Below are positions 21,762-46,414 of a stretch of 64,000 bases of DNA, one piece after another. The stretch's first letter is position 1. Each line of letters starts with the position of its first letter. The notes under the pieces were generated by a model. The model did not search any database, was not told where the DNA came from, and worked only from the letters and a program-made list of their open reading frames with translations. Origin of the DNA: an uncultured Gemmatimonadota bacterium (GTDB lineage Bacteria; JAAXHH01); contig OX638340.1 of assembly GCA_951812955.1 (NCBI GenBank), positions 3,749,437 to 3,813,436 on the forward strand, given 5' to 3'. A program made the position numbers and the translations under genes.

Positions 21762-23297
21762 ATGGCGCAGGCAGCCTGGAGTACCATGGCCGATCAACCC
21801 AACATCCTCCTGATCCTGTCCGACCAGATGGTTGCCGCGCTGACCGGAACCTATGGACATCCCGTCGTCCGGACCCCTAACCTGGACAGACTGGCGGCAA
21901 CCGGCGTGCGCTACGATGCCGCCTACACCGCCTTTCCGCTCTGCGCGCCCGGCAGGGCCTGCCTGATGACGGGAAGGCATGCTTCGGAAATCGGCGCCTG
22001 GGACAACGGCGCACTGCTGTCTGCGGACGAACCTACCTTTGCCCACTACCTGGCTCGTGCGGGTTACGATACCGTGCTGTCGGGCAAGATGCATTTTATC
22101 GGCCCGGACCAACTGCACGGATTCAGAAAGCGGCTGACCACCGACATATATTCCTCCGATTTCGATTGGGTAAAGCCGGAATGGATCCGCCTGAAAGAAA
22201 CCAGAGGGACGGACTTCGAGCAGGTCATGAGCAACCGACCGGCCTATAACGCGGCGGGGTACACGGGCGACGGTGTGCGGATCGACGCCTGGCACGACGC
22301 TTTGAGTTACGACGAGGAAACCCATTTCCGCGCTATTGAATACCTGCGGGCCAGGAACTCCGGCGGGGAGGACGGCCCCTTTCTGCTCTGCGCGTCCTAT
22401 CACCATCCGCACGAACCGTTCTGGCCGCCCGATGCCTACTGGAAACAGTATGAAGGGGCGGACATCGACCTGCCCGTCTTTCCTGCCGACCTGGATGATC
22501 ACCATTCCATGATGGACCTGAACCTCAACGCCTATCACGGTACCGGGTGTTACGATCTGCGGAACGAAGAGGGCCTCTACCGGCTTCGCCGCGCCTATTA
22601 CGCCCTGGTGAGCTACATGGACGACAAGGTCGGTGGCCTGCTGGACGCGCTCGACGAAACCGGACTGGCTGAAAATACGGTGGTAGTCTTCGCCAGCGAT
22701 CATGGCGACATGCTGTGCGAGCGGGGCATGGTTCAGAAACGCTGTTTCTACGAATGGTCCTGCCGGGTGCCCCTCATCGTTCGCTTTCCGGATGGATGGA
22801 GGGCGGGTACGACCTTTCCCGATCCCGTGTCGCTGATCGATCTTCTGCCTACGTTCTGCGATCTCGCGGGCGTTGAGGACCGGCTTCCCCACGACGGCCA
22901 AAGTCTCGTGTCAGCGGCCGCGGACGACGGGGACCGCGTGGTGTTCGCCCAGGCGCACGAGGCCGTGGGCATGCCCTGCATCATGGCGAGGCAGGGTCGG
23001 TACAAGTACCATTACATACACGGTTTCGCCCCTCGGCTTTTTGATCTGGACAACGATCCGGACGAATGGCATAATCTCTCGGGCGAGCACGCCGAGGACG
23101 AACACCGCCAGGTGGAAGCGCGTCTGCTCGGCCGGATCCTCGACCGGTTCGACCCGGATGCCATTGCGGAGGAAAACCTGGACAGCCTTTACCGGCGGCG
23201 CCTGATCCGGGATACCATGTCGCGGTACGGACACACGTGGAGTCATGAGCCCGGTTTAGACCACCGGAAGGGCGCCATGAAACAGTATTTGAGCTAG
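21762..23297 (+). CDS. Formylglycine-dependent sulfatase (choline-sulfatase/arylsulfatase family)
   Basis: N-terminal PNILLILSDQ, CxPxR motif LCAPGRACLMTGRH, about 505 aa. Start 21762 or Met at 21786. Confidence 0.85.
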   Translation: MAQAAWSTMADQPNILLILSDQMVAALTGTYGHPVVRTPNLDRLAATGVRYDAAYTAFPLCAPGRACLMTGRHASEIGAWDNGALLSADEPTFAHYLARAGYDTVLSGKMHFIGPDQLHGFRKRLTTDIYSSDFDWVKPEWIRLKETRGTDFEQVMSNRPAYNAAGYTGDGVRIDAWHDALSYDEETHFRAIEYLRARNSGGEDGPFLLCASYHHPHEPFWPPDAYWKQYEGADIDLPVFPADLDDHHSMMDLNLNAYHGTGCYDLRNEEGLYRLRRAYYALVSYMDDKVGGLLDALDETGLAENTVVVFASDHGDMLCERGMVQKRCFYEWSCRVPLIVRFPDGWRAGTTFPDPVSLIDLLPTFCDLAGVEDRLPHDGQSLVSAAADDGDRVVFAQAHEAVGMPCIMARQGRYKYHYIHGFAPRLFDLDNDPDEWHNLSGEHAEDEHRQVEARLLGRILDRFDPDAIAEENLDSLYRRRLIRDTMSRYGHTWSHEPGLDHRKGAMKQYLS

Positions 23298-29932: not shown

Positions 29933-31746
29933 TATCTGTTCTCCTCGATGATCGCTGCCAGGTCCTCCCTGATGGACTGGACCGGAACGCGGTTGATCAC
30001 CATTTCACCGTCTTCATTCCTGTGCTGGGTAATGTTGATGCTTCCGAATTCCTCGTCCTTGTCCTCGTAGTCCTCGCGGAAGTGGGCGCCCCGGCTCTCC
30101 TTCCTTTCCAGCGCGGCGCGGGCCACCGCCTCCGACACGATCATCAGGAACTTGAGATCCAGCGCGGTGTGCCATCCGGGATTGTATTCCCGGTTTCCGA
30201 TGACAGAGACTTTCTGCGCCCGCTGCCTGAGTTCGTCGATCACTTCCAGCGCTTTCTGCATGTCCCCTTCGTTTCGAACGATGCCGACGAGCTCCTGCAT
30301 CCGGTCCTGCAGCTCGTACTGGATGTCGAAGGGATTCTCACCGCTGTTCTCCCGGTCGAAGGGCGCCAGGGTCTCGGCGACGGCCGCTTCGACCTGGCCT
30401 TCGTCGATGGTCCCGTTCTCGTTCTCGCGTGCGAACTCCGCCGCGTACCGGCCGGCGCGCTGTCCGAACACCAGCAGATCGGAAAGGGAGTTGCCACCCA
30501 GTCGATTGGCGCCGTGCAGGCCCGCGGCACATTCCCCGGCGGCGAAAAGACCGGGCACGGTAGACATCTGCGTGTCGGCGTCCACGAGCACTCCGCCCAT
30601 CACGTAATGGGTGGTGGGGCCTACTTCCATGGCCTCCTTCGTGATGTCGATGTCGGCCAGTTGCTTGAACTGGTGATACATGCTGGGCAGCTTGCGCTTG
30701 ATGTGTTCTTCGGCGTTCGGCAGTTTTTCCTTGATCCAGGCGATGTCGAGGTATACGCCGTCGTGGGGCGACCCGCGGCCTTCCCTGATTTCCCGGACGA
30801 TGCACCGCGCCACGTGATCACGCGTCAGCAGTTCCGGCGGACGACGGGCCTCCTTGTCTCCCTGGGTGTATATCCAGCCCTCTTCGGGACTGTCCGCAGT
30901 CTGGTTCTTGTACAGATCGGGGATGTCGTCGAACATGAACCGATTGCCTTCGCTGTTCGTCAGGGTGCCGCCCTCGCCGCGGACGCCTTCCGTGACCAGG
31001 ATGCCCCGCACGCTCGGTGGCCAGACCATGCCCGTCGGGTGGAACTGGACGAATTCCATGTCCAGCAGCTCGGCCCCGGCTTCGTAGGCCAGTCCGTGGC
31101 CGTCTCCCGTGTATTCCCAGCTGTTGCTCGTAATCTTGAAGGCCCGGCCGATGCCGCCCGTGGCCAGGATGACCGCCTTGGCGCGAAAGACCCGAAAACG
31201 TCCCCGCTCCCGGTCGTAGCCGAAGGCGCCGACGACCCGGTCTCCGTCCTTCAGCAGGGCCACGATGGCGTGTTCCATATACACTTCCATGCCCTGGTGG
31301 ATCCCGTAATCCTGCAGGGTCCGTATCATCTCCAGGCCGGTACGGTCGCCCACGTGGGCCAGCCGAGGATACTTGTGCCCCCCGAAGTTGCGCTGCAGTA
31401 TGCGGCCGTCGTCCGTCCGGTCGAACAGGGCGCCCCAGGCTTCCAGTTCCCGCACGCGGTCCGGCGCTTCCCTGGCGTGCAGCTCGGCCATGCGCCAGTT
31501 GCTCAGGTACTGGCCGCCCCGCATCGTGTCGGCGAAATGCACGCTCCAGCCGTCCCGGTCGTCCACGTTGGCCAGCGCCGCCGCGACCCCGCCTTCGGCC
31601 ATGACCGTATGGGCTTTGCCCAGTAGGGATTTGCACACCAGACCTACTGAAACTCCGGCCGACGAGGCCTCGATCGCCGCCCGGAGCCCTGCTCCGCCGG
31701 CTCCGATCACCAGTACGTCATGTTCATGATGCTGGTATTCCGCCAT
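29932..31746 (-). CDS. sdhA: Succinate dehydrogenase/fumarate reductase flavoprotein subunit
   Basis: DVLVIGAGGAGLRAA FAD motif, histidyl-FAD region, about 605 aa from MAEYQHHEHD. Start overlaps the sdhC stop. Confidence 0.9.
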   Translation of the reverse strand: MAEYQHHEHDVLVIGAGGAGLRAAIEASSAGVSVGLVCKSLLGKAHTVMAEGGVAAALANVDDRDGWSVHFADTMRGGQYLSNWRMAELHAREAPDRVRELEAWGALFDRTDDGRILQRNFGGHKYPRLAHVGDRTGLEMIRTLQDYGIHQGMEVYMEHAIVALLKDGDRVVGAFGYDRERGRFRVFRAKAVILATGGIGRAFKITSNSWEYTGDGHGLAYEAGAELLDMEFVQFHPTGMVWPPSVRGILVTEGVRGEGGTLTNSEGNRFMFDDIPDLYKNQTADSPEEGWIYTQGDKEARRPPELLTRDHVARCIVREIREGRGSPHDGVYLDIAWIKEKLPNAEEHIKRKLPSMYHQFKQLADIDITKEAMEVGPTTHYVMGGVLVDADTQMSTVPGLFAAGECAAGLHGANRLGGNSLSDLLVFGQRAGRYAAEFARENENGTIDEGQVEAAVAETLAPFDRENSGENPFDIQYELQDRMQELVGIVRNEGDMQKALEVIDELRQRAQKVSVIGNREYNPGWHTALDLKFLMIVSEAVARAALERKESRGAHFREDYEDKDEEFGSINITQHRNEDGEMVINRVPVQSIREDLAAIIEENR

Positions 31747-32549
31747 TAAAGGATTCTCCAATCCGTCCACACGCCCATGGCCACGAGGCGCACGTATATA
31801 TCCGAGAAACCGACCCATACCAGGCTCATCCAGGCCCAGGTCATGTGTCCCCGGTTCAAGCACGAGACGCAGTTGTAACCCGCGTGCCGGACGGGCGCTT
31901 TGGACAGATGATCCAGGTACCCGCCGATCAGGTGCCGCAGTGAGTGGCAGCCGAACTGGTAGCCGCCGAGCAGGACGACGTTCAAGGTCAACACAATGGT
32001 TCCGACGCCGATACCGAACGTAGTCTCACCCGTCGCCGCGTCCGTGAACCACATGGCCTTCCATGCGTCCTGGACCAGGAAGATCCAGATGATGAATACC
32101 AGGTAAAGGAAGTATCGGTGAATGTTCTGCATGATCAACGGGAAGGATTGCTCCCCGCGGTACTTTTTCCTCGGTTCGGAAACGCTGCAGGATGGCGGGT
32201 CAGCCCAGAAAGCCTTGTAGTAAGCGCCCCGGTAGTAATAGCAGGTAATCCGGAATCCGGCCGGAGCCCAAAGGATTATGAAGGCAGGTGAAAACGGCAG
32301 CAGGGCCGGCCACCATACGGGTTTGGGACCGAACAGGGCATGGGACGAACTGCCGAAAATCTCTGGAGAATAAAAGGGCGACAGGTAGGGGCCCCAGGCG
32401 TAGAACTCACCCTGGAAGGCCGCCCAGGTTGAGTAGACGACAAAGGCGGAGAATACGCCGAATGTCAGTAATTGCTGCGCCCACCATGCGTCTCTGCGTT
32501 GCGTCTGACCAAAACCGCTCGTCTTCAGCGAAACACCGGTTGTCGACAT
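31746..32549 (-). CDS. sdhC: Succinate dehydrogenase cytochrome b558 membrane anchor subunit (single-subunit, 5-TM type)
   Basis: 267-aa polytopic protein with conserved His ligands, immediately upstream of sdhA. Bacillus/Bacteroidetes-type b558. Confidence 0.75.
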   Translation of the reverse strand: MSTTGVSLKTSGFGQTQRRDAWWAQQLLTFGVFSAFVVYSTWAAFQGEFYAWGPYLSPFYSPEIFGSSSHALFGPKPVWWPALLPFSPAFIILWAPAGFRITCYYYRGAYYKAFWADPPSCSVSEPRKKYRGEQSFPLIMQNIHRYFLYLVFIIWIFLVQDAWKAMWFTDAATGETTFGIGVGTIVLTLNVVLLGGYQFGCHSLRHLIGGYLDHLSKAPVRHAGYNCVSCLNRGHMTWAWMSLVWVGFSDIYVRLVAMGVWTDWRIL

Positions 32550-32816
32550 AGGCTATCCTCTTGAATCCAGCGTACCGAACAACTGAATTTCACGGACAAA
32601 ACACATTAGCGCAAAATAGACCGGCGAAGGCCGCAATGCAATAGAAAAATAACCTCGCTTTTGCCATGGTTTCGGCATGCTGCCGTCCGCAACAACTGGG
32701 ATAAAACAATGGCCGGATCAGCCTGTCGGGCAGTATATTCAAACCCTGTTTCGTTACGCGACGCCGGAACGCCCGGTTCAGTCATGCCGGGCAGACAAGG
32801 AAGCCGATCCCACCCG

Positions 32817-34775
32817 ATGCCAGCCGACTCGTCACAGGACGCACGCTCCCCGCGCAGCCCGACCGGCATCACCCCCCGCGTACTGATCCTGGGGGGCGTT
32901 CTGGCCGTATTCATCGCGATCTGGACGCCCCACACCAATTACGTGATGCATGGCCCGAGGCTCACCCTGAGCCATATCTCTATCGCGGCCCTGGTTTCCT
33001 TTCTCATGGTGATCTTCTGTATGCAGATCCCCCTTCGCAGGTGGCGGCCCGCGCAGGCGTTCTCCGCGAGCGAACTGGCCGTGCTGTTCGTCTTCTGTCT
33101 CGTTTCGTCGACAATTCCGGGCAAGGCTTTCGTGGACTACTTTATCGGAATCCTCGCCTCCCCTTACTATTACGTTACGCCGGAGAACCGGTGGGCGGAT
33201 ACCTTCTTTCCCCACCTGCCCGGATGGCTGGTCGTCCGGGACGACCTGGGGGCCGCGACGGCGTTCTACGAAGGCGCCGGCCAGAGCATCATCCTGTGGG
33301 TCGAATGGATCGTTCCCCTGTTCTGGTGGATGTGCATGCTGGCGGCGCTGTTCGTGGTCATGGCCTGCATTTCGGTGATCTTCCGCAAGCAGTGGGTCGA
33401 GCACGAGCGGTTGTCTTTTCCCGCGGTCCAGATACCCTCGATGCTCATCAGGGAGACGACCCGGGGCGGACTGATTCCGGGATTAGTGACGAACCGGTAC
33501 TTCCAGGTGGGATTCGGGGTCACCTTCGCCCTGCTGGCGTGGAACTGCCTCGCCTATTTCGGCACATTCCCCGCCATTCCCGTCGGCGCCGCTTTTAGGA
33601 CGGAGATTCAACTGGCGCCTTCCGTTCCACCGACCCAGGTGCAGTTCAACCTCTTTATGATGTGCTTCGCCTATTTCGCCGACTTGAAGGTGTTGTTCAG
33701 CATCTGGTTTTTTCACCTGCTCGCCCTGCTGGAGATCAGTCTGCTCAACCAGTTGGGCGTATCGGCGTCCGGCGTGGCGGGTGGCTCGCAGTTCATCGTG
33801 AAGACGGAGCACTTCGGCGGGTTCTGGGTATTCGTACTGTGGGGCATATGGATCGGCAGAAACCACCTGAAGGCGGTCTGGCGCAAGGCCCTGGGAAGCG
33901 CACCGGAGGTCGACGACTCCATGGAACTGCTGTCCTATCGCACGGCTGTGGGGGGACTGGCCGCCGGCCTGTGCTACCTGCTGTTCTGGCTTAACAGCAT
34001 GGGTATGTCGGTCGATGTGGCCGTCCTCTTCCTCCTGATCACGCTCGCGCTTTATGTGGGCGTCACCCGCATCGTCGCAGAGACGGGGCTCGTTTTCCTC
34101 GATCTACCGGTCAACTCGAACGAAATGACGGTGGCCGTCATCGGTTCGAGCAACCTGTCGCCTTCGAACCTCACATCCCTCGGACTGACCCACGCCATCT
34201 CCCACAACCACCGGGGCATCGGCCTGTCTTCGCTGATTCACGGCGTGAAGGCCTCCGAAGGCTTCGCCCGGTCGAGAAAAGGACTGTTCGCCGCGGTGTG
34301 CGTATTGCTTGCGCTCACGTTCATCGTCACGAACGGCTACACGATATACGCCGGGGCGACCGGTACCGGGGCCCATGATTTCGCCCCGCTTCGGGCCGAT
34401 AACTTCTACGACCAGCTGGCCACCTGGTTCAACAATCCCTACACCCTGTCCTACGAGGAAATCTATTTCCTGCTCCTGGGTGCTGTCATTACCTGCGGTC
34501 TCCTGTTCATGCAGTACCATTTCGCCGGGTGGCCCTTCCATCCCATCGGATACATCGTGGCCTACGCCGACATCATCAACTTCGAAATCACGTCGATCTT
34601 CATGATCTGGCTGATCAAGGTGCTGCTGCTGAGGCTGGGCGGGTTCGACATGTACCGGAGGATGCAGCCTGCCGTGATCGGCGTGCTGCTGGGCTACGCG
34701 GCGGGGGTGACCCTGTCTCTTGCCGTCGATGTCATCTGGTTCCCCGGCCAGGGGCACAACGTGCACAACTGGTAG
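32817..34775 (+). CDS. Large polytopic membrane protein of unknown function (paralog A, about 650 aa)
   Basis: More than 12 predicted transmembrane segments. Shares motifs (YYVTPENRWADTFF, VIPLFWWM, IFRKQWVEHERL) along full length with the convergent neighbour. Internal Met start chosen after a non-hydrophobic leader. Confidence 0.55.
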   Translation: MPADSSQDARSPRSPTGITPRVLILGGVLAVFIAIWTPHTNYVMHGPRLTLSHISIAALVSFLMVIFCMQIPLRRWRPAQAFSASELAVLFVFCLVSSTIPGKAFVDYFIGILASPYYYVTPENRWADTFFPHLPGWLVVRDDLGAATAFYEGAGQSIILWVEWIVPLFWWMCMLAALFVVMACISVIFRKQWVEHERLSFPAVQIPSMLIRETTRGGLIPGLVTNRYFQVGFGVTFALLAWNCLAYFGTFPAIPVGAAFRTEIQLAPSVPPTQVQFNLFMMCFAYFADLKVLFSIWFFHLLALLEISLLNQLGVSASGVAGGSQFIVKTEHFGGFWVFVLWGIWIGRNHLKAVWRKALGSAPEVDDSMELLSYRTAVGGLAAGLCYLLFWLNSMGMSVDVAVLFLLITLALYVGVTRIVAETGLVFLDLPVNSNEMTVAVIGSSNLSPSNLTSLGLTHAISHNHRGIGLSSLIHGVKASEGFARSRKGLFAAVCVLLALTFIVTNGYTIYAGATGTGAHDFAPLRADNFYDQLATWFNNPYTLSYEEIYFLLLGAVITCGLLFMQYHFAGWPFHPIGYIVAYADIINFEITSIFMIWLIKVLLLRLGGFDMYRRMQPAVIGVLLGYAAGVTLSLAVDVIWFPGQGHNVHNW

Positions 34776-34786
34776 CTTGACCGGAT

Positions 34787-34801
34787 GCCGGCGCCCGCCG
34801 G
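34787..34801. terminator. Short GC hairpin (ccggcg-ccc-gccgg) between convergent membrane-protein genes; possible bidirectional terminator
   Basis: 5-6 bp GC stem with 3-4 nt loop in the 36-bp gap. No U-tract. Confidence 0.25.
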
Positions 34802-34811
34802 AATATCCCGG

Positions 34812-36743
34812 CTAGAATATCTCGGCGATATGGGGGGTGTCGGGGAAATACACTGTATCGACGACGTAGGCGGCCAGGACCCCGACCGCATAACCCACGA
34901 GAATCCCCAGGAACAGAGGCTGGGCCTTCCGGTACAACCCGACGCCGCCAACACGGAGGAGGATGACCTGCACGATCCATGCGACGAAGAGGGTGAAGAC
35001 GACCCCCCGGATGGGTCCCGAAGCGCCAATGGCGAATCCGATGGGATTGAGCGGCCACCAGTAGAAGAGGTACCTGCCCAGGGCCAGCAGCGTGCTGATG
35101 GCCATACCCGCCGCGAGGAACAGGATTTCGAGGGTGGAGATCTGCGTGGCGTTCTTCATCCACTTCACCACCAGGTCGAAGAAAAGGTTCCCGGTGTTGC
35201 GCAGGTTGATGTGGAGGTTGTCCGCCCCTTCCGCGTAACCGGAGTAGACGACGTATCCCGTCGAGATCGCCGTCCCGGCAACAAAAGCGAGGCATATCAG
35301 CAGGAATAGCCGTCCCCGGTTCTCCCCGAGATAGTCGCGCCACCAGGCGACGTGGGAAAGACCGACCATGGTGAAGGTGCGCCAGTTACGCGCGAAGGCG
35401 TTGGTCAGTCCCAGACCGGTCAGCGTCGACCCCGAAAGGCTGGCCGAACCCACCATTCCTACCGTGAAGGCGTGGGCGTTGATGGGCAGGTCGAGGTTGA
35501 TTAGGCCCGCCTCGGCGAGGACGCGGGCAATGCCGAAATAGAATACCAGGAGGAAGAAAAGAAAGAGCATGGCGACGGGGATGGAGAATCCGATGGCGCT
35601 GAGCCAGGCGGTCATGAAGAGCACGCCCAGGACCAGGCCGACGACCGCCGTTCGGTAGGAGAACAGTTCATCTTCGTCCCGCAGGTCGCTCTCCCTTCCG
35701 AGGGATTTACGCAGGACGTTGCGGATGTGTTTCCGGGCCATCCAGCCGCCGATCAGGGCGAACATGATCAGTCCGCCGCAGAACTGGATGGACACGAGTC
35801 CGCGGGGTACGATCGTCTCGGCGGGCGAGACCACTCCGAAGCGGTTGAGCAGGCCTGTTTCCAGGATGCCGAGCACCTGGAAGAACCAGACACTGAAGAG
35901 GATCTCGACGTTGACGAAGAAGGCAAAGCACAGGACGTAAGGCACGAGCCGAATGGCGACAGGCGGGAAGGAGGGATCGATGACCACGTTGAAGACCGGT
36001 CCGGGCAGGGGGATGTGGGGCAGTACGCCCCAGAATCCGATGATGTTCCAGGACATGATGGCCAGGCTGGCCGCGAAACCGACCTGGAAAAGCCGGTTAC
36101 CGAAGAGGGACGGCCATCTCCCGGGCGTGTTCCCGTCGGTTTCGACCAGGCGCAGGATGACCTCGCCCATGGGGAAACGGAGCCGCTCGTGTTCCACCCA
36201 CTGTTTCCGGAAGATCACGACCAGGCAGGCGCCGATGAAGAGCAGCGTGCCCAGGGCCGACATCCACCAGAAGAGCGGTATGACCCAGTCCTGCCACGGG
36301 ATCGGCAATCCGGCAGGCCGCCCCTCGAAGAAATCCGAGACTTGCCCCTTGTCATTGGGGATGACCGCCCATTCAGGCAAGTACGCGAAAAAGTGGGCCT
36401 CCCACTGGTTTTCCGGACTCGCGAAGTAATGGGGCGCGGTGATTACGCTGATGAGATAGCGGACCATGCCCCAGTCCGGCACCATGGCCGCGATCAGTCC
36501 CATGGCGAAAATGACCAGGAGTTCCGGCCTTGTCAGCGCGGCGTCCCGGTATATTAAGCGGATCAGTGTGTTCGGCAGCAGGACCAGGAAAAGGAAGGGA
36601 ATGACCAGACTAAGCGGCATCTGGGGGAAGGTCAGATAGTTGTAGTTCAGCTGTGCGGAGGCGTGTTGTCCCCAGAAAGCGACGCAGCACGCGAAAGCCA
36701 GGCCCAGGACGGCCGTTTTGAGGGATATGGGTTTCACGGTCAT
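34812..36743 (-). CDS. Large polytopic membrane protein of unknown function (paralog B, about 640 aa)
   Basis: Collinear homology with 32817-34775 (HYFASPENQWEAHFF, VIPLFWWM, IFRKQWVEHERL). Start at internal Met MTVKPISLKTAVLGLAFA (signal-anchor). Confidence 0.55.
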   Translation of the reverse strand: MTVKPISLKTAVLGLAFACCVAFWGQHASAQLNYNYLTFPQMPLSLVIPFLFLVLLPNTLIRLIYRDAALTRPELLVIFAMGLIAAMVPDWGMVRYLISVITAPHYFASPENQWEAHFFAYLPEWAVIPNDKGQVSDFFEGRPAGLPIPWQDWVIPLFWWMSALGTLLFIGACLVVIFRKQWVEHERLRFPMGEVILRLVETDGNTPGRWPSLFGNRLFQVGFAASLAIMSWNIIGFWGVLPHIPLPGPVFNVVIDPSFPPVAIRLVPYVLCFAFFVNVEILFSVWFFQVLGILETGLLNRFGVVSPAETIVPRGLVSIQFCGGLIMFALIGGWMARKHIRNVLRKSLGRESDLRDEDELFSYRTAVVGLVLGVLFMTAWLSAIGFSIPVAMLFLFFLLVFYFGIARVLAEAGLINLDLPINAHAFTVGMVGSASLSGSTLTGLGLTNAFARNWRTFTMVGLSHVAWWRDYLGENRGRLFLLICLAFVAGTAISTGYVVYSGYAEGADNLHINLRNTGNLFFDLVVKWMKNATQISTLEILFLAAGMAISTLLALGRYLFYWWPLNPIGFAIGASGPIRGVVFTLFVAWIVQVILLRVGGVGLYRKAQPLFLGILVGYAVGVLAAYVVDTVYFPDTPHIAEIF

Positions 36744-36771
36744 GCCTGGTCTAGTCCGGCCGCGCAGGAAG

Positions 36772-37551
36772 TCATTCCTGGATGGAGGCTGTGCCGCGCT
36801 TGAGCCAGAAGCCCCCGTCGACACGCAGGACTTCCCCGGTGATGTAGTCCGCCGCGTCGGAACACAGAAAGGTGGCCGCCTTGCCCAGGTCTTCGATCGT
36901 GCCCATCCGGCCCCAGGGCAGCCGCCTGCCGCCTTCCTCCAGTTCCTGCTCCGTCGAGTACTGTCGTTCGCCCGGCGTGTCGGTCCATCCCGGTTCGATC
37001 ACATTCACGCGGATGCGGTGCTCCAGCAGTTCCAGGGCGATGATGGCGGCCATGTGGTTCATGCCGGCCTTAGCGGACGAATAGGACAGGGAGGTGGGGA
37101 AGGGGAGGAAGGACATGACCGAGCTGATGAAGAGGATACTGCCGCCTTTTTTCGCGTCCACCATCTTCCGGGCGCCCGACTGCGCGACATGGAAGGCGCC
37201 GAAGAGGCTGACTTCGTAAGTTTTCTTCATTTCGTCCACGTCCATTGCGAGAAAAGGCTCCCGCGTGGAATAGTAGGCGTTGGCCACCACGATATCGGGT
37301 CCGCCGAGTTCCTTCGCCGTCTGATCCACCATGTCGTCCACGGCGGACCGGTCGGAGGCGTCCGCGCCGACGAGGATCGCCCGACGGCCCATGGACCTGA
37401 TTTCCTCGGCGACGGCCTCGCCGTCGTCCCGGTGGCTGAAGTAGTTGACGGTGACGTCCGCCCCGGCCCGGGCCATCTCCAGTGCGATGCCCTTGCCGAT
37501 GCCCCGGGACGAACCACTGATCAGCGCTGTCTTGCCCGTCAGGTCGATCAT
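36772..37551 (-). CDS. Short-chain dehydrogenase/reductase (SDR)
   Basis: From MIDLTGKTALISGSSRGIGKG; YSSAK catalytic motif. Track ORF has a 63-aa N-terminal extension into the repeat region, trimmed. Confidence 0.8.
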   Translation of the reverse strand: MIDLTGKTALISGSSRGIGKGIALEMARAGADVTVNYFSHRDDGEAVAEEIRSMGRRAILVGADASDRSAVDDMVDQTAKELGGPDIVVANAYYSTREPFLAMDVDEMKKTYEVSLFGAFHVAQSGARKMVDAKKGGSILFISSVMSFLPFPTSLSYSSAKAGMNHMAAIIALELLEHRIRVNVIEPGWTDTPGERQYSTEQELEEGGRRLPWGRMGTIEDLGKAATFLCSDAADYITGEVLRVDGGFWLKRGTASIQE

Positions 37552-37589
37552 GGTTCCCTCGATTCGAAATACATGGTGAACGGTACGAA

Positions 37590-37770
37590 TGTCCCGAGCG
37601 GCCGCACGATCGGGAGTGCCCGTACGACCGGGAGTGCCCGTACGACTAGGAGTACCCGCGAGATCGAGATCGGCCGCACGATCGGGAGCTGTTGAACGAT
37701 ACAGGCGTGCCCGCGCGATCAAGCGCGACAGCGCGATCAAGCGTGACAGCGCGATCGGGATCGACTACGC
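37590..37770. repeat. Composite degenerate tandem repeats (gggagtgcccgtacgac x3; agcgcgatcaagcgYgac x2-3) in the intergenic region
   Basis: Read directly between the SDR start and the isomerase stop. Confidence 0.6.
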
Positions 37771-37781
37771 CGGGAGCGGTT

Positions 37782-38543
37782 TCAAAGCTTCATGGCGGTC
37801 ATGTTGCGGTAGCTGACAGCGATACTGTCGAAGGGGTCGCCGGCGCAGGTGTCCTGTTCGACGACGTACCACTGGGACCCCGCGGTCTCGCATGCAGCGA
37901 CGATGCCGGACCAGTTCATGTTGCCCTCGCCGATCTCGGCCATCACCTGTTCCCGTCCCGACACGCCCAGGTCCTTGAAATGGATGACCGGGCACCGGTC
38001 CCGTACCCGGCCGATCCAGTGTATGGGGTCCCCACCGCCGTACTGGATCCAGTAGGTGTCGATTTCAAAGCACAGGGCGGGGTCGCTCTCCTCCACGAGG
38101 ATGGCCAGCCCGGTCCGACCGCCCACCCGCACGAGTTCCGTGTGGTGGTTGTGGTAGCTGAAGGACATGCCCGCTTCCTGCAACCCGATGGCCACGGCAG
38201 ACGCGTCCACCGCGAACCGCGAAAAACCGTCCGGATCGTCCCAGTAGGATCTCGGCATGGACCCGACGGCTATATGCTCACATCCCCAGAGGCGGTGTTC
38301 GGCGGCGACTTCATCCGGTTTCTCCTGCAGCCGTTCGAAGGGTACGTGCGTGGCGCAGACGTGCAGGCCGGCGTCCCGGATCATGGCGCCGAGTTCCGCG
38401 GGGTCGACAGGACCCAGGGCCGATAGCTGTATGTGGTCGTAGCCGATGGACTTGACTCTCTTCAGGGTGTCCGCGATATCGGCCGGCGTCTGCACGAAGT
38501 CGCGTAAAGTATAGAGTGTAACGGCGATCTTGCTGTCTGGCAT
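37782..38543 (-). CDS. Sugar phosphate isomerase/epimerase (xylose isomerase-like TIM barrel)
   Basis: AP-endonuclease-2/xylose-isomerase-like TIM layout with conserved E/D/H metal ligands (HNHHTE, EIDTYW). Start 38543 (SD AAGGAGA) or 38558. Confidence 0.65.
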   Translation of the reverse strand: MPDSKIAVTLYTLRDFVQTPADIADTLKRVKSIGYDHIQLSALGPVDPAELGAMIRDAGLHVCATHVPFERLQEKPDEVAAEHRLWGCEHIAVGSMPRSYWDDPDGFSRFAVDASAVAIGLQEAGMSFSYHNHHTELVRVGGRTGLAILVEESDPALCFEIDTYWIQYGGGDPIHWIGRVRDRCPVIHFKDLGVSGREQVMAEIGEGNMNWSGIVAACETAGSQWYVVEQDTCAGDPFDSIAVSYRNMTAMKL

Positions 38544-38554
38544 CCATCTCTCCT

Positions 38555-39997
38555 TCATTTTTCCATAGGTTCAAAAGCAGGCGAATCATCCTCCCACGCG
38601 CCGCCGACCGGACGAAGTTGCCCGAGTCCTGTAACGGGCCGTAGCCGCCCGTCACGATCCGGATCGGCGTATCGTTCGAACCAGCCTTCCAGTTCCCCGC
38701 GGAGCGATCTGCATCGGCCGGCATATCCGGCATCTTCCGCGAGGTTGGCCCGTTCGTCCGGGTCATTCTCCAGGTCGTACAGTTCGTTCGGTCCCTCGGT
38801 ATACCGGTGCACGTACTTCCACGATTCGGTCCGGATCATGCGCGTGCCGCCGTATTCGTCGAAAATCACCACGTGGTCCCGGCTCGCATCGTCCCGGCCC
38901 GTCCAGGCGTCCAGGGTGTTCCGCCCCGGCAGGTTGCGGTCCCAGGGTACGGGCAGGTCCAGGTACGACAGCAACGTGGGCATGAAGTCGTAAGCGCTGA
39001 GCATGGCCTCTTGCACGAATCCTTCGGGCAGGCGTCCTGGCTGGCTGACCAGGGCGGGTACCCGGATGGAGTTCTCGTACATGTTTAACGGGCTCGTCCC
39101 GTTTCCTTTCCCCCAGAATCCGTGGTGTCCCAGGCTGAAACCGTTGTCGCTCAAGAAGATAACCAGGGTGTTTTCGCGGATGCCGTGCCGGTCGAGCCGG
39201 TCAAGCAGGCGGCCTACGTCGAGGTCCATGGCCGTGACGGCCGCGAAGTAGCCCTTCAGGCTTTCGCGGTCGCCCATGCATTCGCGGGTCAGGCCGCCGG
39301 CCCAGGGATGGATGGGTTCCTGCGGACAGGATGCGAAGGCGCAGTCGTCGTAGGAATCGACGATGTCCTGCGGATGGCCCGTCCACGGGCTGTGCGGCGC
39401 GGTATAATGGACGCCGAGGTAGAACGGTTCTTCCTGGTTGGCGTGGCGGTCGATAAAGGCGAGGGCGTCGTCGGTAATGACATTCGTGACGTATCCCGGT
39501 TCGTTGACCGGGACGCCGTCGCGCACCATGGGGGCGTTGTTGTAGGGCCCGCCGCCGAACTGGTGGGCGAACCAGTGGGAAAACCCGTGCTGGGTCAGGG
39601 TGCTGTTGCCCAGGTGCCACTTGCCGCTGAGGCCGCATCGCCACCCATGGTCCGCGAGCACATCGGTGTACGCCGTTTCGCCCTCGAGGTATGAAGCCGC
39701 GTCCTCCCCGACGTTGCCACCCCGGATCCAGTCGTGCACGCCGTGCTGGGAGGCGATCCGGCCGGTCAGCAGCGTCGCGCGGCTGGGCGAGCAGACTGGC
39801 GTGGCCACGAAGAACCGGTCGAAGCGCACCCCGGTCTGCGCGATTCGGTCGATGTTCGGCGTGCGTATTTCGGAATTGCCGTAGCAGCCCGCCGCCCAGA
39901 CGCCCTGGTCGTCGGTAAGGATGCAGAGCACGTTCGGTCGGGACGAAACCATGGCATGTCCTGGGATCGAGTGGTTATCCTGTGCGTGATTCATCAA
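38555..39997 (-). CDS. Formylglycine-dependent arylsulfatase
   Basis: PNVLCILTDDQG, CxPxR motif PVCSPSRATLLTGR, about 465-480 aa. True start probably an internal Met (about 39994 or about 39952). Confidence 0.85.
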   Translation of the reverse strand: MMNHAQDNHSIPGHAMVSSRPNVLCILTDDQGVWAAGCYGNSEIRTPNIDRIAQTGVRFDRFFVATPVCSPSRATLLTGRIASQHGVHDWIRGGNVGEDAASYLEGETAYTDVLADHGWRCGLSGKWHLGNSTLTQHGFSHWFAHQFGGGPYNNAPMVRDGVPVNEPGYVTNVITDDALAFIDRHANQEEPFYLGVHYTAPHSPWTGHPQDIVDSYDDCAFASCPQEPIHPWAGGLTRECMGDRESLKGYFAAVTAMDLDVGRLLDRLDRHGIRENTLVIFLSDNGFSLGHHGFWGKGNGTSPLNMYENSIRVPALVSQPGRLPEGFVQEAMLSAYDFMPTLLSYLDLPVPWDRNLPGRNTLDAWTGRDDASRDHVVIFDEYGGTRMIRTESWKYVHRYTEGPNELYDLENDPDERANLAEDAGYAGRCRSLRGELEGWFERYADPDRDGRLRPVTGLGQLRPVGGAWEDDSPAFEPMEK

Positions 39998-40243: not shown

Positions 40244-41275
40244 ATGATACAAGCAGGTATCGTGGGCTACGGCCTGGCGGGTCGTTTATTCCATGCCTAC
40301 CTGGTCTCGCGGACCGATGGGTTGAAACTGAAGGCCGTCGCCAGCCGGGATCCGGAACGGAGGGCACAGGCGGTACGGGACTGGTCCGTGGATACCTATG
40401 AGACCTTGACCGGTCTCCTGTCGGACGACGATATCCAGCTCGTCATCCTGGCCACGCCCCACCATACCCACGCATCTCTGGCCATCGAGGCCATGGAGGC
40501 GGGAAGACACGTGGTCGTCGACAAGGTCATGTGCATGTCGGCCGCCGAAGCCGAGGAAATGATCGCGGTCAGCAAGCGTCGCGGGGTCACGTTGAGCGTC
40601 TTCCACAACCGCCGCTGGGACTGGGGTTATCTTACCGTGCGCAAGGCGGTGGAAGACGGCCTGCTGGGCGATCCCTTCCTGATCGAACGGTCTGTGCACC
40701 GGTTCCGGGCTTCCCGGGGCTGGCGGACAAACCGGTCGGAGAGCGGCGGCCTGCTCTACGATTGGGGCGCCCACCTCATCGACCAGGGGTTGCAGTTGCT
40801 GGGCGCCCTTCCCGACGCGATCCATTGCAAGGGGCACAAGTACCGGTGGGAAGGTGACATCGAGGATCACGTCACCTGTACCCTGTATTTCGAGAACGGC
40901 GCCGAATATCGCATTGAAATCAGCAATTTGTCCCGTATAGCAAAACCCCACTGGTACGTTCTGGGCACCCGGGGCTCCCTTGTCAAGACAGGCCTCGACC
41001 CCCAGGAGGACTGGATGAAGAATGGCGAGATCGAGGCCGCGGAGGAGGCCCCCGAAGACCGCGTCAGGGTTGCCGCGGAACGGGACGGCGAGGCCTTGGA
41101 GATGACCCTCGATCCGGTGAAGGGCAGTTGGGTGGATTACTACCGGAACATCGCAGCCGTGCTGGACAGTAGCGCGGAACTCGCCGTAAAGCCCGGCGAG
41201 ATGCTGGACCTGATGAGGGTGCTGGACGCCGCCACGGAATCCCTGGAATCCGGGCGGGTGGTATCGATGAAATGA
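40244..41275 (+). CDS. Gfo/Idh/MocA family oxidoreductase
   Basis: From MIQAGIVGYGLAG (Rossmann), VVVDKV... Track ORF begins 39734 with an implausible leader, trimmed. Confidence 0.75.
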   Translation: MIQAGIVGYGLAGRLFHAYLVSRTDGLKLKAVASRDPERRAQAVRDWSVDTYETLTGLLSDDDIQLVILATPHHTHASLAIEAMEAGRHVVVDKVMCMSAAEAEEMIAVSKRRGVTLSVFHNRRWDWGYLTVRKAVEDGLLGDPFLIERSVHRFRASRGWRTNRSESGGLLYDWGAHLIDQGLQLLGALPDAIHCKGHKYRWEGDIEDHVTCTLYFENGAEYRIEISNLSRIAKPHWYVLGTRGSLVKTGLDPQEDWMKNGEIEAAEEAPEDRVRVAAERDGEALEMTLDPVKGSWVDYYRNIAAVLDSSAELAVKPGEMLDLMRVLDAATESLESGRVVSMK

Positions 41276-42342
41276 GGATCGAACGGAACATGGAACCCAG
41301 GCGAATGGTCATTCTCACGGAGGGGAGTCTGGGCACGTTCTCGTCCAAGACGGCCGCTTCGCTCATCCGCTACAAGCCCGATGAAACCGTGGCGGTGCTC
41401 GACAGCGTGCACGCAGGCAGGAATTTGGAAGACCTGCTCGAGGTCGGGCGGGGCATCCCGGTCGTGTCGACGTTGAAAGAAGCGCTGGCGTTCAGACCGA
41501 CCTCGCTGGTTATCGGGATCGCTACGCCGGGCGGCATCTTGCCCGCAGCATGGCGAGCGGTCATCCACGAGGCGATCGAGCACGGGCTCGAGGTGGTAAA
41601 CGGGCTTCATACCTTTTTCGGCGAGGACGAAGAATTCGCCCGTCACGCCGAGAGGAAGGGCGTTCGGCTGTGGGACGTGCGAAAGCCGCCGGACGACCTG
41701 GATGTAGGGCGTCACGCGGTTCACGGCCTCCCGAATCTTCGTGTGCTGACCGTAGGCGCCGATTCGAGCATCGGCAAGAAGATCGCCGCGATCGAAATCA
41801 GCCGTGCGGCCCGCGAGACAGGATGGGATGCCGAGTTCGTAGCTACAGGGCAGACCGGTATTATGATCGCTGGATCGGGCATCGCGGTGGACACCGTGGC
41901 GGCGGACTACATATCGGGTGCCGTGGAACGGCTTGTGCTAGAAAGAAAGGACCGGGAACTGCTGGTCATCGAAGGCCAGGGCACGGTCCTGCATCCGTCC
42001 TATTCCGGTGTATCGCTCGGCCTGTTGCACGGCGCGGCGCCGCAGGCCCTGGTGCTTTGCCACCAGCCCGGCCGTGACGTGATGCGCAATCTGCCCGTAG
42101 CCGTGCCGTCCTACGAAGAGATGATTCACGTTCACGAGACGATCGCCCGGCCGCTGTTTCCCTGCCGGGTCGCGGCGGTTTCGCTCAATTGCTTCGGCAT
42201 GTCCATGGACGATGCCAGGCGCGAAGTGGACCGGGTCGCGCAGGAGACCGGACTTCCGGCGACGGACTGCGTGAAATTCGGATGCGATCCGATTCTGGAG
42301 GCCCTTGAGCCCCTGAAGGTTCCGTCGACGAAACCTACCTGA
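41272..42342 (+). CDS. DUF1611 family protein (DgcN-like putative N-acetyltransferase)
   Basis: 356 aa; IAVLDS...GIATPGGILP... pattern recalled for DUF1611/DgcN. Start overlaps the upstream stop. Confidence 0.5.
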   Translation: MRIERNMEPRRMVILTEGSLGTFSSKTAASLIRYKPDETVAVLDSVHAGRNLEDLLEVGRGIPVVSTLKEALAFRPTSLVIGIATPGGILPAAWRAVIHEAIEHGLEVVNGLHTFFGEDEEFARHAERKGVRLWDVRKPPDDLDVGRHAVHGLPNLRVLTVGADSSIGKKIAAIEISRAARETGWDAEFVATGQTGIMIAGSGIAVDTVAADYISGAVERLVLERKDRELLVIEGQGTVLHPSYSGVSLGLLHGAAPQALVLCHQPGRDVMRNLPVAVPSYEEMIHVHETIARPLFPCRVAAVSLNCFGMSMDDARREVDRVAQETGLPATDCVKFGCDPILEALEPLKVPSTKPT

Positions 42343-42361
42343 TGAAGCCGGAGTGCGTAAG

Positions 42362-43699
42362 ATGAACATCCGAATACTTACTGCCGAAGAGGCCGTGACG
42401 GGCATCCTGAAGCGGCGGCCGTTGAACGAGGCCATGTCGGCTGCCGGGATCGAAGAACGGAACAGGGAACTGTTCGGCAAGGCCCTGACGGCGGAACAGG
42501 CCGTAGCGACCATAATCGACGATATTCGAAAGAGCGGGGACGATTCGGTAAGGCACTACGCCCGGTTGCTGGATGGGCAGGCACCATCTGCCCTCGAAGT
42601 CCCGCGGAGCGAGATCGACGAGGCGGCGGCATCGCTGCCTTCCAGTTTGCGTGATGCGCTGGAAACGGCGGCCGAACGCATCCGGTCGTTTCACGAAAAG
42701 CAAACGTTCGAGTCCTGGACGCACTGGGACGAAGAGGGCGGTACCGGACAGATCGTGCGGCCGCTGGACCGGGTCGGCGTCTACGTACCCGGCGGCGGGG
42801 CCGCCTATCCATCCTCACTGCTGATGGCCGTGATCCCCGCCCGAGCGGCCGGAGTCCGGGAGGTCGTCGTGGCCACGCCCCCAGGAAGGGACGGAGCTGT
42901 ACCGTCCGCGGTTCTGGCCGCTGCTTCCGTGGCGGGTGCCGACGCGGTATACCGTATCGGAGGTCCACAGGCGATCGCGGCGATGGCCCATGGTACCGAG
43001 TCCATTTCACGCGTCGACAAGATCGTGGGTCCGGGTAATGTATTCGTGACCCTGGCCAAGCGCCAGGTGTACGGGATCGTGGACATCGACCAGCTGGCCG
43101 GTCCCACTGAAACCCTGCTGATCGCCGACGATACGGCCAGTGCGGAATTAGCGGCGGCAGACCTGCTGGCGCAGGCCGAACACGATACCATGGCGAGCGC
43201 CATACTGATCACGCCGTCGTCCGGGCTGGCCCTGGCGGTGCAAAACGCCCTGGATGAACAGTTGGCCGAACTGGACCGGGCGGAAATAATCCGGTCCTCC
43301 CTGCAACATAACGGAGGGATCGTGCTGGTCTCGAGCCTCGAAGAAGCGGTTGAACTGGCAAACGCCTACGCACCGGAGCACCTGTGCCTGCTCGTCGCGG
43401 ATCCATGGACCCTTGTGGACAGCATCCGGCACGCCGGGGGAATCTTCGTGGGAGAACACTCTTCAGAGGCCCTGGGGGACTACGTCACCGGACCGAGCCA
43501 TATCATGCCCACCGGGGGCAGCGCCCGTTTCCATTCTCCCTTGAGTGTGCGCGATTTCCTGAAGATCACCAGCCTGTTCGCGGTCAATGAACTGGCTGAG
43601 AAAAGGTTGGGACCTACCGCAATCAGGCTGGCGGAAGCAGAAGGCCTTTCGGCCCACGCCATGGCCATACGAAGAAGACGCTCAAGCGACCGAGACTGA
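42362..43699 (+). CDS. hisD: Histidinol dehydrogenase
   Basis: GGGAAYPSSLLM, QAEHD, zinc/NAD-binding regions; about 445 aa. Confidence 0.85.
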   Translation: MNIRILTAEEAVTGILKRRPLNEAMSAAGIEERNRELFGKALTAEQAVATIIDDIRKSGDDSVRHYARLLDGQAPSALEVPRSEIDEAAASLPSSLRDALETAAERIRSFHEKQTFESWTHWDEEGGTGQIVRPLDRVGVYVPGGGAAYPSSLLMAVIPARAAGVREVVVATPPGRDGAVPSAVLAAASVAGADAVYRIGGPQAIAAMAHGTESISRVDKIVGPGNVFVTLAKRQVYGIVDIDQLAGPTETLLIADDTASAELAAADLLAQAEHDTMASAILITPSSGLALAVQNALDEQLAELDRAEIIRSSLQHNGGIVLVSSLEEAVELANAYAPEHLCLLVADPWTLVDSIRHAGGIFVGEHSSEALGDYVTGPSHIMPTGGSARFHSPLSVRDFLKITSLFAVNELAEKRLGPTAIRLAEAEGLSAHAMAIRRRRSSDRD

Positions 43700-44813: not shown

Positions 44814-45668
44814 ATGATAAAAAACACGCTCATTCCTTCGCTGAAGGCCATCATCCTGGCGGTGTCAGCGATCACCTTCGCCGCCACCGCGCTGTCAGTC
44901 CATGCGCAGCAGATACCCTACGCACCGACGTCCGAAGGCCAGATTCCGGAAGCGATACTCGGCAAGGCCGGCGCGCCCCGCGGCAGCGGCCTGGCCTATT
45001 TCGATGAAGATCCGGCTACAATGGGTTACCTCGCCGAACCGGATGGACCGGGTCCACGGGGTGCCGTCATTTTGATCCATGAGTGGAACGGGTTGGTGGA
45101 CCGCGTGAGACAGGTGGCCGATGCCCTGGCGGCGGAGGGCTACGTCGCCCTGGCGGCGGATCTGTATTCCGGGCGCACGGGGAGCAACCGCGACGAGAAC
45201 ATGGCGCTCGTTCGCGAAACGCTGGGAGAGATGGACAAGATCATCCGTAACCTGGACGCGGCGGCGGCCTATCTGAGAGGAAGGACGGATGTAAACGGCA
45301 AAATCGCAGCCATGGGCTGGTGCTACGGCGGAGGGGTCGCCCTGAGCTATGCCCTGGGCGGCGAGAACCACGATGCCACCGCCATCTTCTACGGACGACT
45401 GCTCGACGATCCCGAAAGACTCAGTGCCATACATCATGAAGTCTATGGCACCTTCGCCGGACTCGACCGTGGTCCTTCGCCCGAACAGGTTGGACGGTTC
45501 GTCGCCGCGCTTCGCGAAGCCGGCGTGGAGAACGACGTGCACATCTACGACGACGTCAACCACGGGTTCTGGCTGTACGTGGACCGCGACCCGAATAACG
45601 AGGAACCTGCGCTGGACGCATGGGAGCGGCTGAAGGACTATCTCAAAAGGACCATAGGAAGCGACTGA
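44814..45668 (+). CDS. Secreted dienelactone hydrolase family protein
   Basis: Signal peptide (MIKNTLIPSLKAIILAVSAITFAATALSVHA) and DLH fold (GWCYGGG nucleophile elbow). Confidence 0.65.
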   Translation: MIKNTLIPSLKAIILAVSAITFAATALSVHAQQIPYAPTSEGQIPEAILGKAGAPRGSGLAYFDEDPATMGYLAEPDGPGPRGAVILIHEWNGLVDRVRQVADALAAEGYVALAADLYSGRTGSNRDENMALVRETLGEMDKIIRNLDAAAAYLRGRTDVNGKIAAMGWCYGGGVALSYALGGENHDATAIFYGRLLDDPERLSAIHHEVYGTFAGLDRGPSPEQVGRFVAALREAGVENDVHIYDDVNHGFWLYVDRDPNNEEPALDAWERLKDYLKRTIGSD

Positions 45669-46414
45669 TGGATGCTTTCGACCAGGCCTTAGCCGAAATC
45701 GAGACCTTCGGGTTTACGCTGTTGCCCGACGTATTGACGGCGAATCAGGCAGGAGCATTGCGCGAAGCCTTGATCCGCGTAGCGGAAGAAAATGGCGAGG
45801 CAGGTTACGAGAACCGGGGGGGCACGTCGCTGCTGGTTCGGAACCTGCCCACCCTGGATCCCGTGTTCCTTCAGATCGTCGACCACCCGGTCGTTCTGCC
45901 CATCCTGGAGCGGATGCTCGACAAGACCCTGGTGCTGGGCAGCCTGAGTTCCCGGATCGTCCGGCCCGGAGACGGTTACCAGGACCTCCACAGCGACATT
46001 CCTCGGCACATGTTGAACCCCATCTCCCCGGTTATGATGAACACCGTCTGGATGCTGGATGATTTCAACGCGGAGATCGGTGGCACGCGCATCGTTCCGG
46101 GTTCGCACAAGAGCGGATGGGCGGGACCGCCTGATGGCATGGAGGTGCCGCACGTGTACCAGCCCGAGGCCTCCGCAGGCAGCGTGCTGATTTTCAACGG
46201 CCAATGCTGGCACGGCGGCGGCGCCAATACTTCAGACCGAAGCCGCCACGCTCTTTTCGGGCACTACCGCAAGTCCATGCTCCTCTTTCAGCTCGATCCG
46301 CACGACGGTTTTCGGGACGAGTGGTTCGAAGGACTGTCTTCCCGCCAGAAACAGCTCATGCGCATGCAGAAGGGGGTCGGCGCACGTCACGCGGCGGATG
46401 ATCACCTGCTGTAG
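45668..46414 (+). CDS. PhyH-family Fe(II)/2-oxoglutarate dioxygenase
   Basis: HxD (DLHSDIP) and distal His (CWHGGG). ATG overlaps the upstream TGA. Confidence 0.7.
   Translation: MDAFDQALAEIETFGFTLLPDVLTANQAGALREALIRVAEENGEAGYENRGGTSLLVRNLPTLDPVFLQIVDHPVVLPILERMLDKTLVLGSLSSRIVRPGDGYQDLHSDIPRHMLNPISPVMMNTVWMLDDFNAEIGGTRIVPGSHKSGWAGPPDGMEVPHVYQPEASAGSVLIFNGQCWHGGGANTSDRSRHALFGHYRKSMLLFQLDPHDGFRDEWFEGLSSRQKQLMRMQKGVGARHAADDHLL

Follow-up and report, generated by a model that had tools for sequence, protein, structure and literature searches.

Two convergent DUF6785/DUF6784 membrane proteins of an uncultured Gemmatimonadota bacterium as predicted remote members of the oligopeptide transporter superfamily

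What do two large membrane proteins of unassigned family, encoded tail-to-tail in an uncultured Gemmatimonadota bacterium, do for the cell, and does their arrangement matter? We analyzed the window of 64,000 nucleotides that carries the two genes, here called A and B (NCBI GenBank assembly GCA_951812955.1, contig OX638340.1, positions 3,749,437 to 3,813,436 of the forward strand; all coordinates below are window positions). An earlier note on this DNA had described the two products as paralogues of a family that it did not recognize. Our analysis indicates that A and B are probably inner-membrane secondary transporters from a remote branch of the oligopeptide transporter (OPT)/YSL superfamily that is defined by the domains DUF6785 and DUF6784. 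By analogy with barley Yellow Stripe 1 (HvYS1), they would perform elevator-type, ion-driven import. From its locus, B would be tied to a neighboring gene group that includes an SDR and a sulfatase.

Gene A (32817 to 34775, plus strand) encodes a polytopic membrane protein of 652 amino acids with DUF6785 at residues 19 to 509 and DUF6784 at residues 550 to 640. Gene B (34812 to 36743, minus strand) encodes its 643-amino-acid paralogue, which has the same two domains; both are predicted to be OPT/YSL-fold secondary transporters. The full open reading frames (ORFs) extend from 32661 to 34775 for A and from 34812 to 36824 for B. If translation starts at the ATG at 32817, A is as long as its closest database homologues, and a start at the ATG at 36743 gives B its 643 residues. 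The stop codons face each other across a spacer of exactly 36 bp (34776 to 34811), the length given in the earlier note. BLASTP aligned A with B over 635 residues with 36% identity and 57% positives (E 3e-145), and every loop motif quoted in support of full-length paralogy was present (YYVTPENRWADTFF / HYFASPENQWEAHFF; VIPLFWWM; IFRKQWVEHERL[SR]FP). The same motifs are the family-wide consensus sequences PxYxATPENxW, PLFWW, and ILRKQWVEHERLxFP. The N-terminus of each protein forms a hydrophobic membrane helix. Hydropathy analysis found 11 to 12 strongly hydrophobic stretches per protein, three to four of them of double-helix length, and 11 stretches in HvYS1 by the same procedure. Hydropathy suggests approximately 14 to 16 membrane helices per protein, and the helix lists of the AlphaFold2 models were consistent with this picture. 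These results agree with the N-terminal anchor and the more than 12 transmembrane segments given in the earlier note.

We assigned both proteins to Pfam families, and the guess that they might belong to a recently catalogued large membrane DUF proved correct. PF20581 (DUF6785; gathering score 25 bits) matched approximately the first 500 residues, scoring 368.3 bits in A and 328.8 bits in B (E 7e-110 and 7e-98). PF20580 (DUF6784; gathering score 26.4 bits) matched the last ~90 residues at the C-terminus with 69.4 and 69.0 bits, respectively (E ~3e-19). No model of NCBIfam matched either protein. All 73 homologues in our family alignment (A1) matched PF20581. The family-wide motifs in A1 are TxRA, ExL, PxYxATPENxW, LPxWLV, PLFWW, ILRKQWVEHERLxFP, SYRxAV, RIVAETGL, WWPLHPIGF, and LRxGG, and the invariant residues (A numbering) are E86, W193, P202, G424, W598, G609, and G622, all of which are present in A and B. 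The two proteins are typical full-length members that differ from the rest of the family solely by their convergent pairing, a feature found only in their own lineage.

The family is large. An exhaustive profile search yielded 8,730 clusters at 50% identity with E<=1e-3, of which 3,418 had E<=1e-30; most belonged to Latescibacterota, Gemmatimonadota, and Planctomycetota, with several copies per genome. Chromosome OZ241920.1, for example, carries four genes at three separate loci, and the Latescibacterota metagenome-assembled genome (MAG) jk18x7bins.54 likewise carries four genes at three loci (L011, L017, and L028). The homologues come from MAGs of Gemmatimonadota, Latescibacterota, Planctomycetota, and Zixibacteria, and their annotation goes no further than 'hypothetical' or 'DUF6785 family protein'. 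The closest locus, L001, is in a Gemmatimonadetes MAG and shows 98% identity. A literature search with the names and Pfam accessions of DUF6785 and DUF6784 found no mention of the family. A few representatives are overlong: P0169 has 2,120 amino acids with the DUF6785/6784 unit at residues 1474 to 2113, P0148, P0181, and P0221 have 824 to 874 amino acids, and others contain two matching stretches; such proteins could be fusions or the result of mis-joined gene calls.

We predicted the structures of A and B with AlphaFold2 on family alignments without templates. Confidence was high, with a predicted local distance difference test (pLDDT) of 90.1 and a predicted template modeling score (pTM) of 0.90 for A, and 92.5 and 0.92 for B. 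A Foldseek search of the PDB returned only two significant matches, 7wsr_A and 7wst_A, both of barley Yellow Stripe 1, an iron-phytosiderophore transporter (E 6e-8, probability 1.0, TM 0.64/0.69). None of the remaining matches (APC, LeuT, MFS, ABC, and others) was better than E 0.025 or TM 0.17. The two-domain fold of HvYS1, which consists of a core and a scaffold domain, is therefore the predicted fold of A and B at high confidence. The match spans both Pfam DUFs, and thus DUF6785 and DUF6784 are two pieces of one OPT-like transporter unit. A memorized resemblance is unlikely because the AlphaFold2 weights are older than the 2022 release of 7wsr. The earlier note had proposed comparing the models with GT-C and O-antigen polymerase folds; these were not encountered, and the HvYS1 fold was found instead. 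The fold searches ruled out GT-C, polymerase, MFS, APC, and ABC folds.

The relationship was also detected by comparing sequence profiles. An OPT alignment was seeded with HvYS1 residues 49 to 677, recovered from PDB alignment output, to which were added genes annotated as 'oligopeptide transporter, OPT family' on prokaryotic plasmids, found with the HvYS1 sequence, and database homologues including five prokaryote-like (bacterial or metagenomic) sequences that were 22 to 26% identical to HvYS1. It spans plant, bacterial, and archaeal sequences. Alignment of A1 with this 20-sequence OPT alignment by hhalign gave a probability of 96.0% (E 3.8e-9, score 83.3) over 525 collinear columns, extending from positions 35 to 660 of A1 and from positions 22 to 604 of the 659 in the OPT alignment. 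With six OPT sequences, the probability was 83.7% (E 8e-6) over 517 collinear columns, and with the single HvYS1 sequence the match was insignificant (E 0.12). When one alignment was reversed as a control, the score fell to ~20 (E ~0.25), and twenty block-shuffled OPT alignments reached at most a score of 37.8 and 152 columns. Reversing both alignments restored a score of 54.5, as expected.

Several conserved residues coincide in the aligned profiles. Residues invariant in both alignments pair as E86 of A with E114 of HvYS1, R190 with R187, and P202 with P199. The family motif LRKQWVEHERLxFP aligns with the OPT motif PLRxxLxxDxxLxYPxG. The motifs kept from the N-terminal half of OPT proteins are the Glu of 'QEN' and the Arg and Pro of 'PLR..L...L.YP.G'. 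Among Pfam families other than its own, PF03169 (OPT) gave the best match, obtained with one of the 73 family members (E 3.2e-4). On the basis of fold and profile homology, we conclude that the DUF6785/DUF6784 family is a genuine, very distant branch of the OPT superfamily (TC 2.A.67). The Pfam DUF pair was already known, and the placement in the OPT/Yellow-Stripe superfamily is new. A and B themselves are ordinary family members and do not constitute a new kind of system.

HvYS1 (PDB 7wsr/7wst), from the YSL branch of the OPT family (TC 2.A.67, PF03169), is the closest known system; its fold was unique among solved structures at publication, and it is the only solved OPT member. A and B share only 9 to 13% sequence identity with it. 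They differ further by an insertion of ~55 residues that forms a conserved, Trp/Tyr-rich loop, predicted to be periplasmic, at approximately residues 107 to 160 of A; the loop has the motif order PxYxATPENxW...LPxWLV...PLFWW and faces gaps in the OPT profile. The genomic context of the family consists of bacterial catabolic genes, whereas that of HvYS1/YSL is metal homeostasis. In HvYS1, Asp490 and Asp494 of the motif DxxQDxK (D490, Q493, D494, and K496) are the proposed proton sites (PMC9691689), and in the OPT alignment (A6) D494 and K496 are invariant and D490 is near-invariant. The family consensus at this site is SxxHxAK, in a region of low alignment confidence. If the alignment is correct, the proposed proton-binding Asp pair is missing and the coupling chemistry may differ.

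A and B resemble the prokaryotic OPT proteins (of Lachnospira eligens, Legionella, Tsukamurella, Halorientalis, and a P. aeruginosa plasmid) in size and location, as these are inner-membrane proteins of ~635 to 680 amino acids. The prokaryotic proteins contributed to the OPT profile that matched the DUF6785/6784 profile at 96% probability, and their substrates are likewise mostly deduced from context. Unlike A and B, they are recognized by the Pfam OPT model and by NCBI annotation and keep DxxQDxK. Two arrangements were observed around them. On the P. aeruginosa plasmid CP109682.1 (locus L091, 466 to 3498), a canonical OPT gene lies directly downstream of tauD (taurine dioxygenase) and beside betT, which is an organosulfur or osmolyte context and not a peptide context. 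On the Lachnospira eligens and Halorientalis plasmids (L087 and L090), a PqqD-family gene directly follows the OPT gene, a conserved pairing that spans a bacterium and an archaeon.

We then considered which solutes the two transporters might carry, based on the adjacent genes. The genes flanking the pair agree with the context described in the earlier note: next to A are sdhB, sdhA, and an sdhC-like gene, and next to B are genes for a short-chain dehydrogenase/reductase (SDR), a TIM-barrel protein, a sulfatase, and a Gfo/Idh/MocA oxidoreductase. The SDR gene (36772 to 37551, minus strand; Pfam adh_short) lies 28 bp upstream of B. Its most likely start, the ATG at 37551, follows GAGGGA and gives ~259 amino acids (259 in the L002 orthologue); its closest NCBIfam models are glucose and L-rhamnose 1-dehydrogenases, below the curated cut-offs. 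The SDR-B adjacency is kept in L002, and the SDR gene is probably co-transcribed with B. Further upstream are a gene for a xylose-isomerase-like TIM-barrel protein (37782 to 38558, minus strand; Pfam AP_endonuc_2; NCBIfam iolE at E 1e-11, below cut-off) and a Cys-type sulfatase gene with the motif CSPSR (38555 to 39997, minus strand; Pfam Sulfatase), which overlaps the start of the TIM-barrel gene by 4 bp. The sulfatase resembles arylsulfatases and choline-sulfatases in NCBIfam, below cut-off, and its N-terminus leads straight into the first beta-strand, RPNVLCIL, with no signal peptide.

The absence of a signal peptide is general. Neither of the two sulfatases in the window (38555 to 39997, minus strand, and 21762 to 23297, plus strand) has one, nor does any of the 30 sulfatase-like ORFs in the related loci L002 to L084. 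The first beta-strand begins ~5 to 15 residues from the start codon, and most of these proteins keep the Cys-type CxPxR. Since they lack signal peptides, the sulfatases are cytoplasmic, and therefore their substrates must cross the inner membrane intact. The sulfatase at 21762 to 23297 just reaches the NCBIfam equivalog cut-off for choline-sulfatase (433.8 vs 433.45 bits).

Gene A has a different setting. A 267-bp intergenic region (32550 to 32816, plus strand), defined from the ORF map and sequence, separates A from the divergently transcribed sdhC-like gene, and it is therefore likely that A is transcribed from a promoter of its own. No consensus sigma-70 site was detected in 32550 to 32816. 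Gene A looks monocistronic, ending at the spacer. A search for a riboswitch as a ligand clue upstream of A or B gave no Rfam match at E<=1 in 32400 to 38000.

We compared the neighborhoods of family members in a census of 46 non-redundant loci, in which 127 proteins within two genes (near set) were compared with 127 proteins at least five genes away (control set). The near set contained 160 Pfam families, the commonest being PhyH (6), TIM barrel (5), sulfatase (4), Gfo/Idh/MocA (4), TPR (4), and the enolase superfamily (3). In the control set, Gfo occurred five times, sulfatase four times, and enolase three times, and PhyH and TIM barrel no more than once each. The homologues most similar to A (P0025 and P0028, 42 to 43% identity) directly follow a cluster of aminotransferase, acyl-CoA dehydrogenase, electron transfer flavoprotein, and 2-oxoacid:ferredoxin oxidoreductase genes. 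The B-like homologue in L020 (64% identity) lies beside UxuA, an enolase-superfamily protein, and a Zn-dehydrogenase, and other B-like homologues (45% identity among them) have a PhyH neighbor in L026 and a TIM-barrel gene in L055. Annotated contigs showed further combinations: a TIM barrel, a luciferase-like protein, PhyH, and a sulfatase on one; a DUF6785-sulfatase-PhyH-sulfatase-DUF6785 block with formamidase and gamma-glutamyltranspeptidase nearby on another; an acetyltransferase and a 2-oxoglutarate (2OG) oxygenase on a third; and three tandem family copies beside a UxuA/TIM-barrel gene on a fourth. Such varied neighborhoods are consistent with a transporter family that has come to handle many different substrates. 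PhyH 2OG/Fe(II) dioxygenases, some fused to HEAT repeats, recur beside DUF6785 genes (L081, 10039 to 11466; L082, 10037 to 11437; L083, 11201 to 12013; three genes in L084; L026, 12000 to 12851), and one is present in the window (45620 to 46414); they are the only hint of a recurrent partner and lose significance once multiple testing is taken into account.

These observations can be combined into a model of transport. By analogy with HvYS1, a mobile core domain would move a small organic solute across the membrane against the scaffold domain, as an elevator, driven by an ion gradient and in the direction of import. B would act as the last gene product of a minus-strand group that comprises the cytoplasmic sulfatase, the TIM-barrel enzyme, the sugar-dehydrogenase-like SDR, and B, and at this locus it would probably import a sulfated or carbohydrate-derived solute for processing by those enzymes in the cytoplasm. 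Such a solute is our best guess for B. B is probably linked to the SDR next to it, and a link to the TIM-barrel and sulfatase genes is possible. A, with its own upstream region, would have a substrate other than that of B.

Several points weigh against this assignment. The OPT-like structures of A and B are predictions and not solved structures. A profile search of all PDB chain sequences found nothing even at E<=10, and the OPT link is therefore invisible to a plain search of a hidden Markov model against sequences. Neither A nor B matched PF03169 even at E<=1. DxxQDxK is not conserved at the aligned positions, which are S, H, G, and K in A and S, H, V, and W in B, within the low-confidence part of the alignment. 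A literature search found no transport experiment for any family member. As for the substrate of B, a 230-bp repeat-bearing spacer parts SDR-B from the TIM-barrel and sulfatase genes, and a single operon is not assured. Across the 46 loci, the neighbors were heterogeneous, no conserved partner emerged, and enrichment was not significant for any neighbor family. Sulfatase (4 near, 4 far) and Gfo/Idh/MocA (4 near, 5 far) were not enriched (p = 0.64), and PhyH (p 0.015 to 0.06) and TIM barrel (p 0.03 to 0.11) were marginal before correction for multiple testing. The earlier note had conceived of a role in transport or processing of glycans; transport is well supported, and the glycan substrate is a weak suggestion specific to this locus, given the lack of sulfatase and Gfo enrichment near family members.

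A and B could also be conventional OPT importers of oligopeptides, glutathione, or metal-chelate complexes. The substrates of characterized OPT members include peptides, glutathione, complexes of metals with nicotianamine or phytosiderophores, and folates (PMC3061005, PMC12831333, PMC12687453). The gene cluster that precedes P0025 and P0028 would fit amino-acid or peptide catabolism, and gamma-glutamyltranspeptidase occurs twice among the near neighbors. However, peptidases are absent from the commonest neighbor families, which are dominated by PhyH, TIM-barrel, sulfatase, Gfo, and enolase-superfamily proteins; the neighbors of B and of B-like homologues are sugar or sugar-acid type enzymes; and the OPT Asp motif is not conserved in A and B. 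In addition, a context analysis of bacterial OPT proteins already suggested non-peptide substrates for some of them, including a proposed oligosaccharide-transporting subcluster (PMC3061005). We regard conventional OPT import as unlikely, and consider it far less likely still that A and B are membrane enzymes or polymerases (GT-C, O-antigen/Wzy-type polymerase, flippase, or MBOAT-like acyltransferase), a view largely refuted by the predicted fold.

Two other alternatives accept the transporter fold and concern direction and assembly. The direction of transport is not readable from the fold, and A and B do not retain the Asp residues proposed as proton sites in the importer HvYS1, so that export, for example of a metabolite, an osmolyte, or a chelator, has to be weighed. 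It is improbable: the characterized OPT proteins named in PMC3061005, PMC12831333, PMC12687453, and PMC9691689 are all uptake systems, and the many paralogues per genome beside catabolic enzymes and cytoplasmic sulfatases suggest uptake. An obligate A-B heterodimer would explain retention of the pair, which is kept in seven of seven orthologous loci; HvYS1 forms a homodimer through its scaffold domain (PMC9691689), and tandem family pairs and triples are common elsewhere. We give this little credence, since most family members in 80 loci are singletons, A and B are convergent with separate promoters, and outside this lineage the closest homologues of either subfamily have no partner. Synteny is weak evidence here, as all seven loci belong to close relatives.

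The arrangement of the pair was examined across relatives. Convergent A/B pairs were seen only in L001 to L007, all of which are close relatives (A 71 to 98% and B 89 to 100% identical). The other loci, among 80 in all, carry singletons or co-directional tandems of two or three genes. The nearest relatives outside this lineage, in L020, L023, and L026 for B and in L008 to L013 for A, lack the partner. The neighborhood-conservation check proposed in the earlier note thus showed that the pairing is not conserved beyond its own lineage, and the convergent pair was rejected as a conserved functional module. It is a lineage-specific juxtaposition of two old subfamilies and not a functional unit in itself.

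The spacer between both stop codons (34776 to 34811) measures 36 bp and contains a GC-rich hairpin without a T tract. The hairpin pointed out in the earlier note does fold (-18.7 kcal/mol), but 35 of 200 dinucleotide shuffles were at least as stable (z = -1.0), and it is not conserved. No T-run follows the hairpin, and a terminator scan called no site in the spacer. A bidirectional terminator was therefore rejected, as the hairpin is no better than shuffles, lacks a T-run, and is not conserved; it is incidental and without special significance. In the seven orthologous loci, the A-B spacers are 6 to 147 bp long, of unrelated sequence, and often contain short repeats. Given this range of lengths, the A-B intergenic regions turn over quickly. 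Short tandem repeats rich in G take the place of the spacer, for example GACCAGGCGG units in L005 (1966 to 1998) and L006 (11930 to 12076) and a 19-bp unit in L002 (11960 to 12029).

The OPT placement makes thousands of 'hypothetical membrane proteins' candidate nutrient importers and extends a superfamily with one solved structure. Metabolic reconstructions of these poorly cultured phyla gain a missing uptake step. With the proposed Asp pair apparently lost and a new conserved periplasmic loop, the clade is a natural comparison for OPT coupling and substrate selection. More tentatively, DUF6785/DUF6784 might be a major unrecognized bacterial OPT clade that has shifted from peptides and metal chelates to sulfated or carbohydrate-derived solutes, which would feed unusually numerous cytoplasmic sulfatases and sugar oxidoreductases. 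In such a clade, the Trp-rich loop would serve for capture, and the coupling site would be unlike the Asp residues of HvYS1.

Minor features were noted elsewhere around the pair. The sdhC-like gene (31746 to 32549, minus strand) encodes a 267-amino-acid membrane protein upstream of sdhA and sdhB, with no match in Pfam (E<=1e-3) or NCBIfam (E<=1e-5); its product is presumably the membrane anchor of succinate dehydrogenase/fumarate reductase. Because this ORF overlaps the longest sdhA ORF by 118 bp, the sdhA start is probably further downstream. Divergent from the sulfatase, a plus-strand trio (40250 to 43699) encodes a Gfo/Idh/MocA oxidoreductase, a DUF1611/DgcN-like N-acetyltransferase (E 1e-84, below cut-off), and a full-scoring hisD-type histidinol dehydrogenase, and resembles an unassigned small-molecule pathway more than histidine biosynthesis. 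Between the TIM-barrel and SDR genes, the 230-bp spacer (37552 to 37781) contains two distinct 18-bp tandem arrays, CCGTACGACCGGGAGTGC repeated 3.2 times (37602 to 37658) and GCGCGATCAAGCGCGACA repeated 2.4 times (37713 to 37756). These could be operator or regulatory repeats, or short-repeat filler as in other spacers of these genomes.

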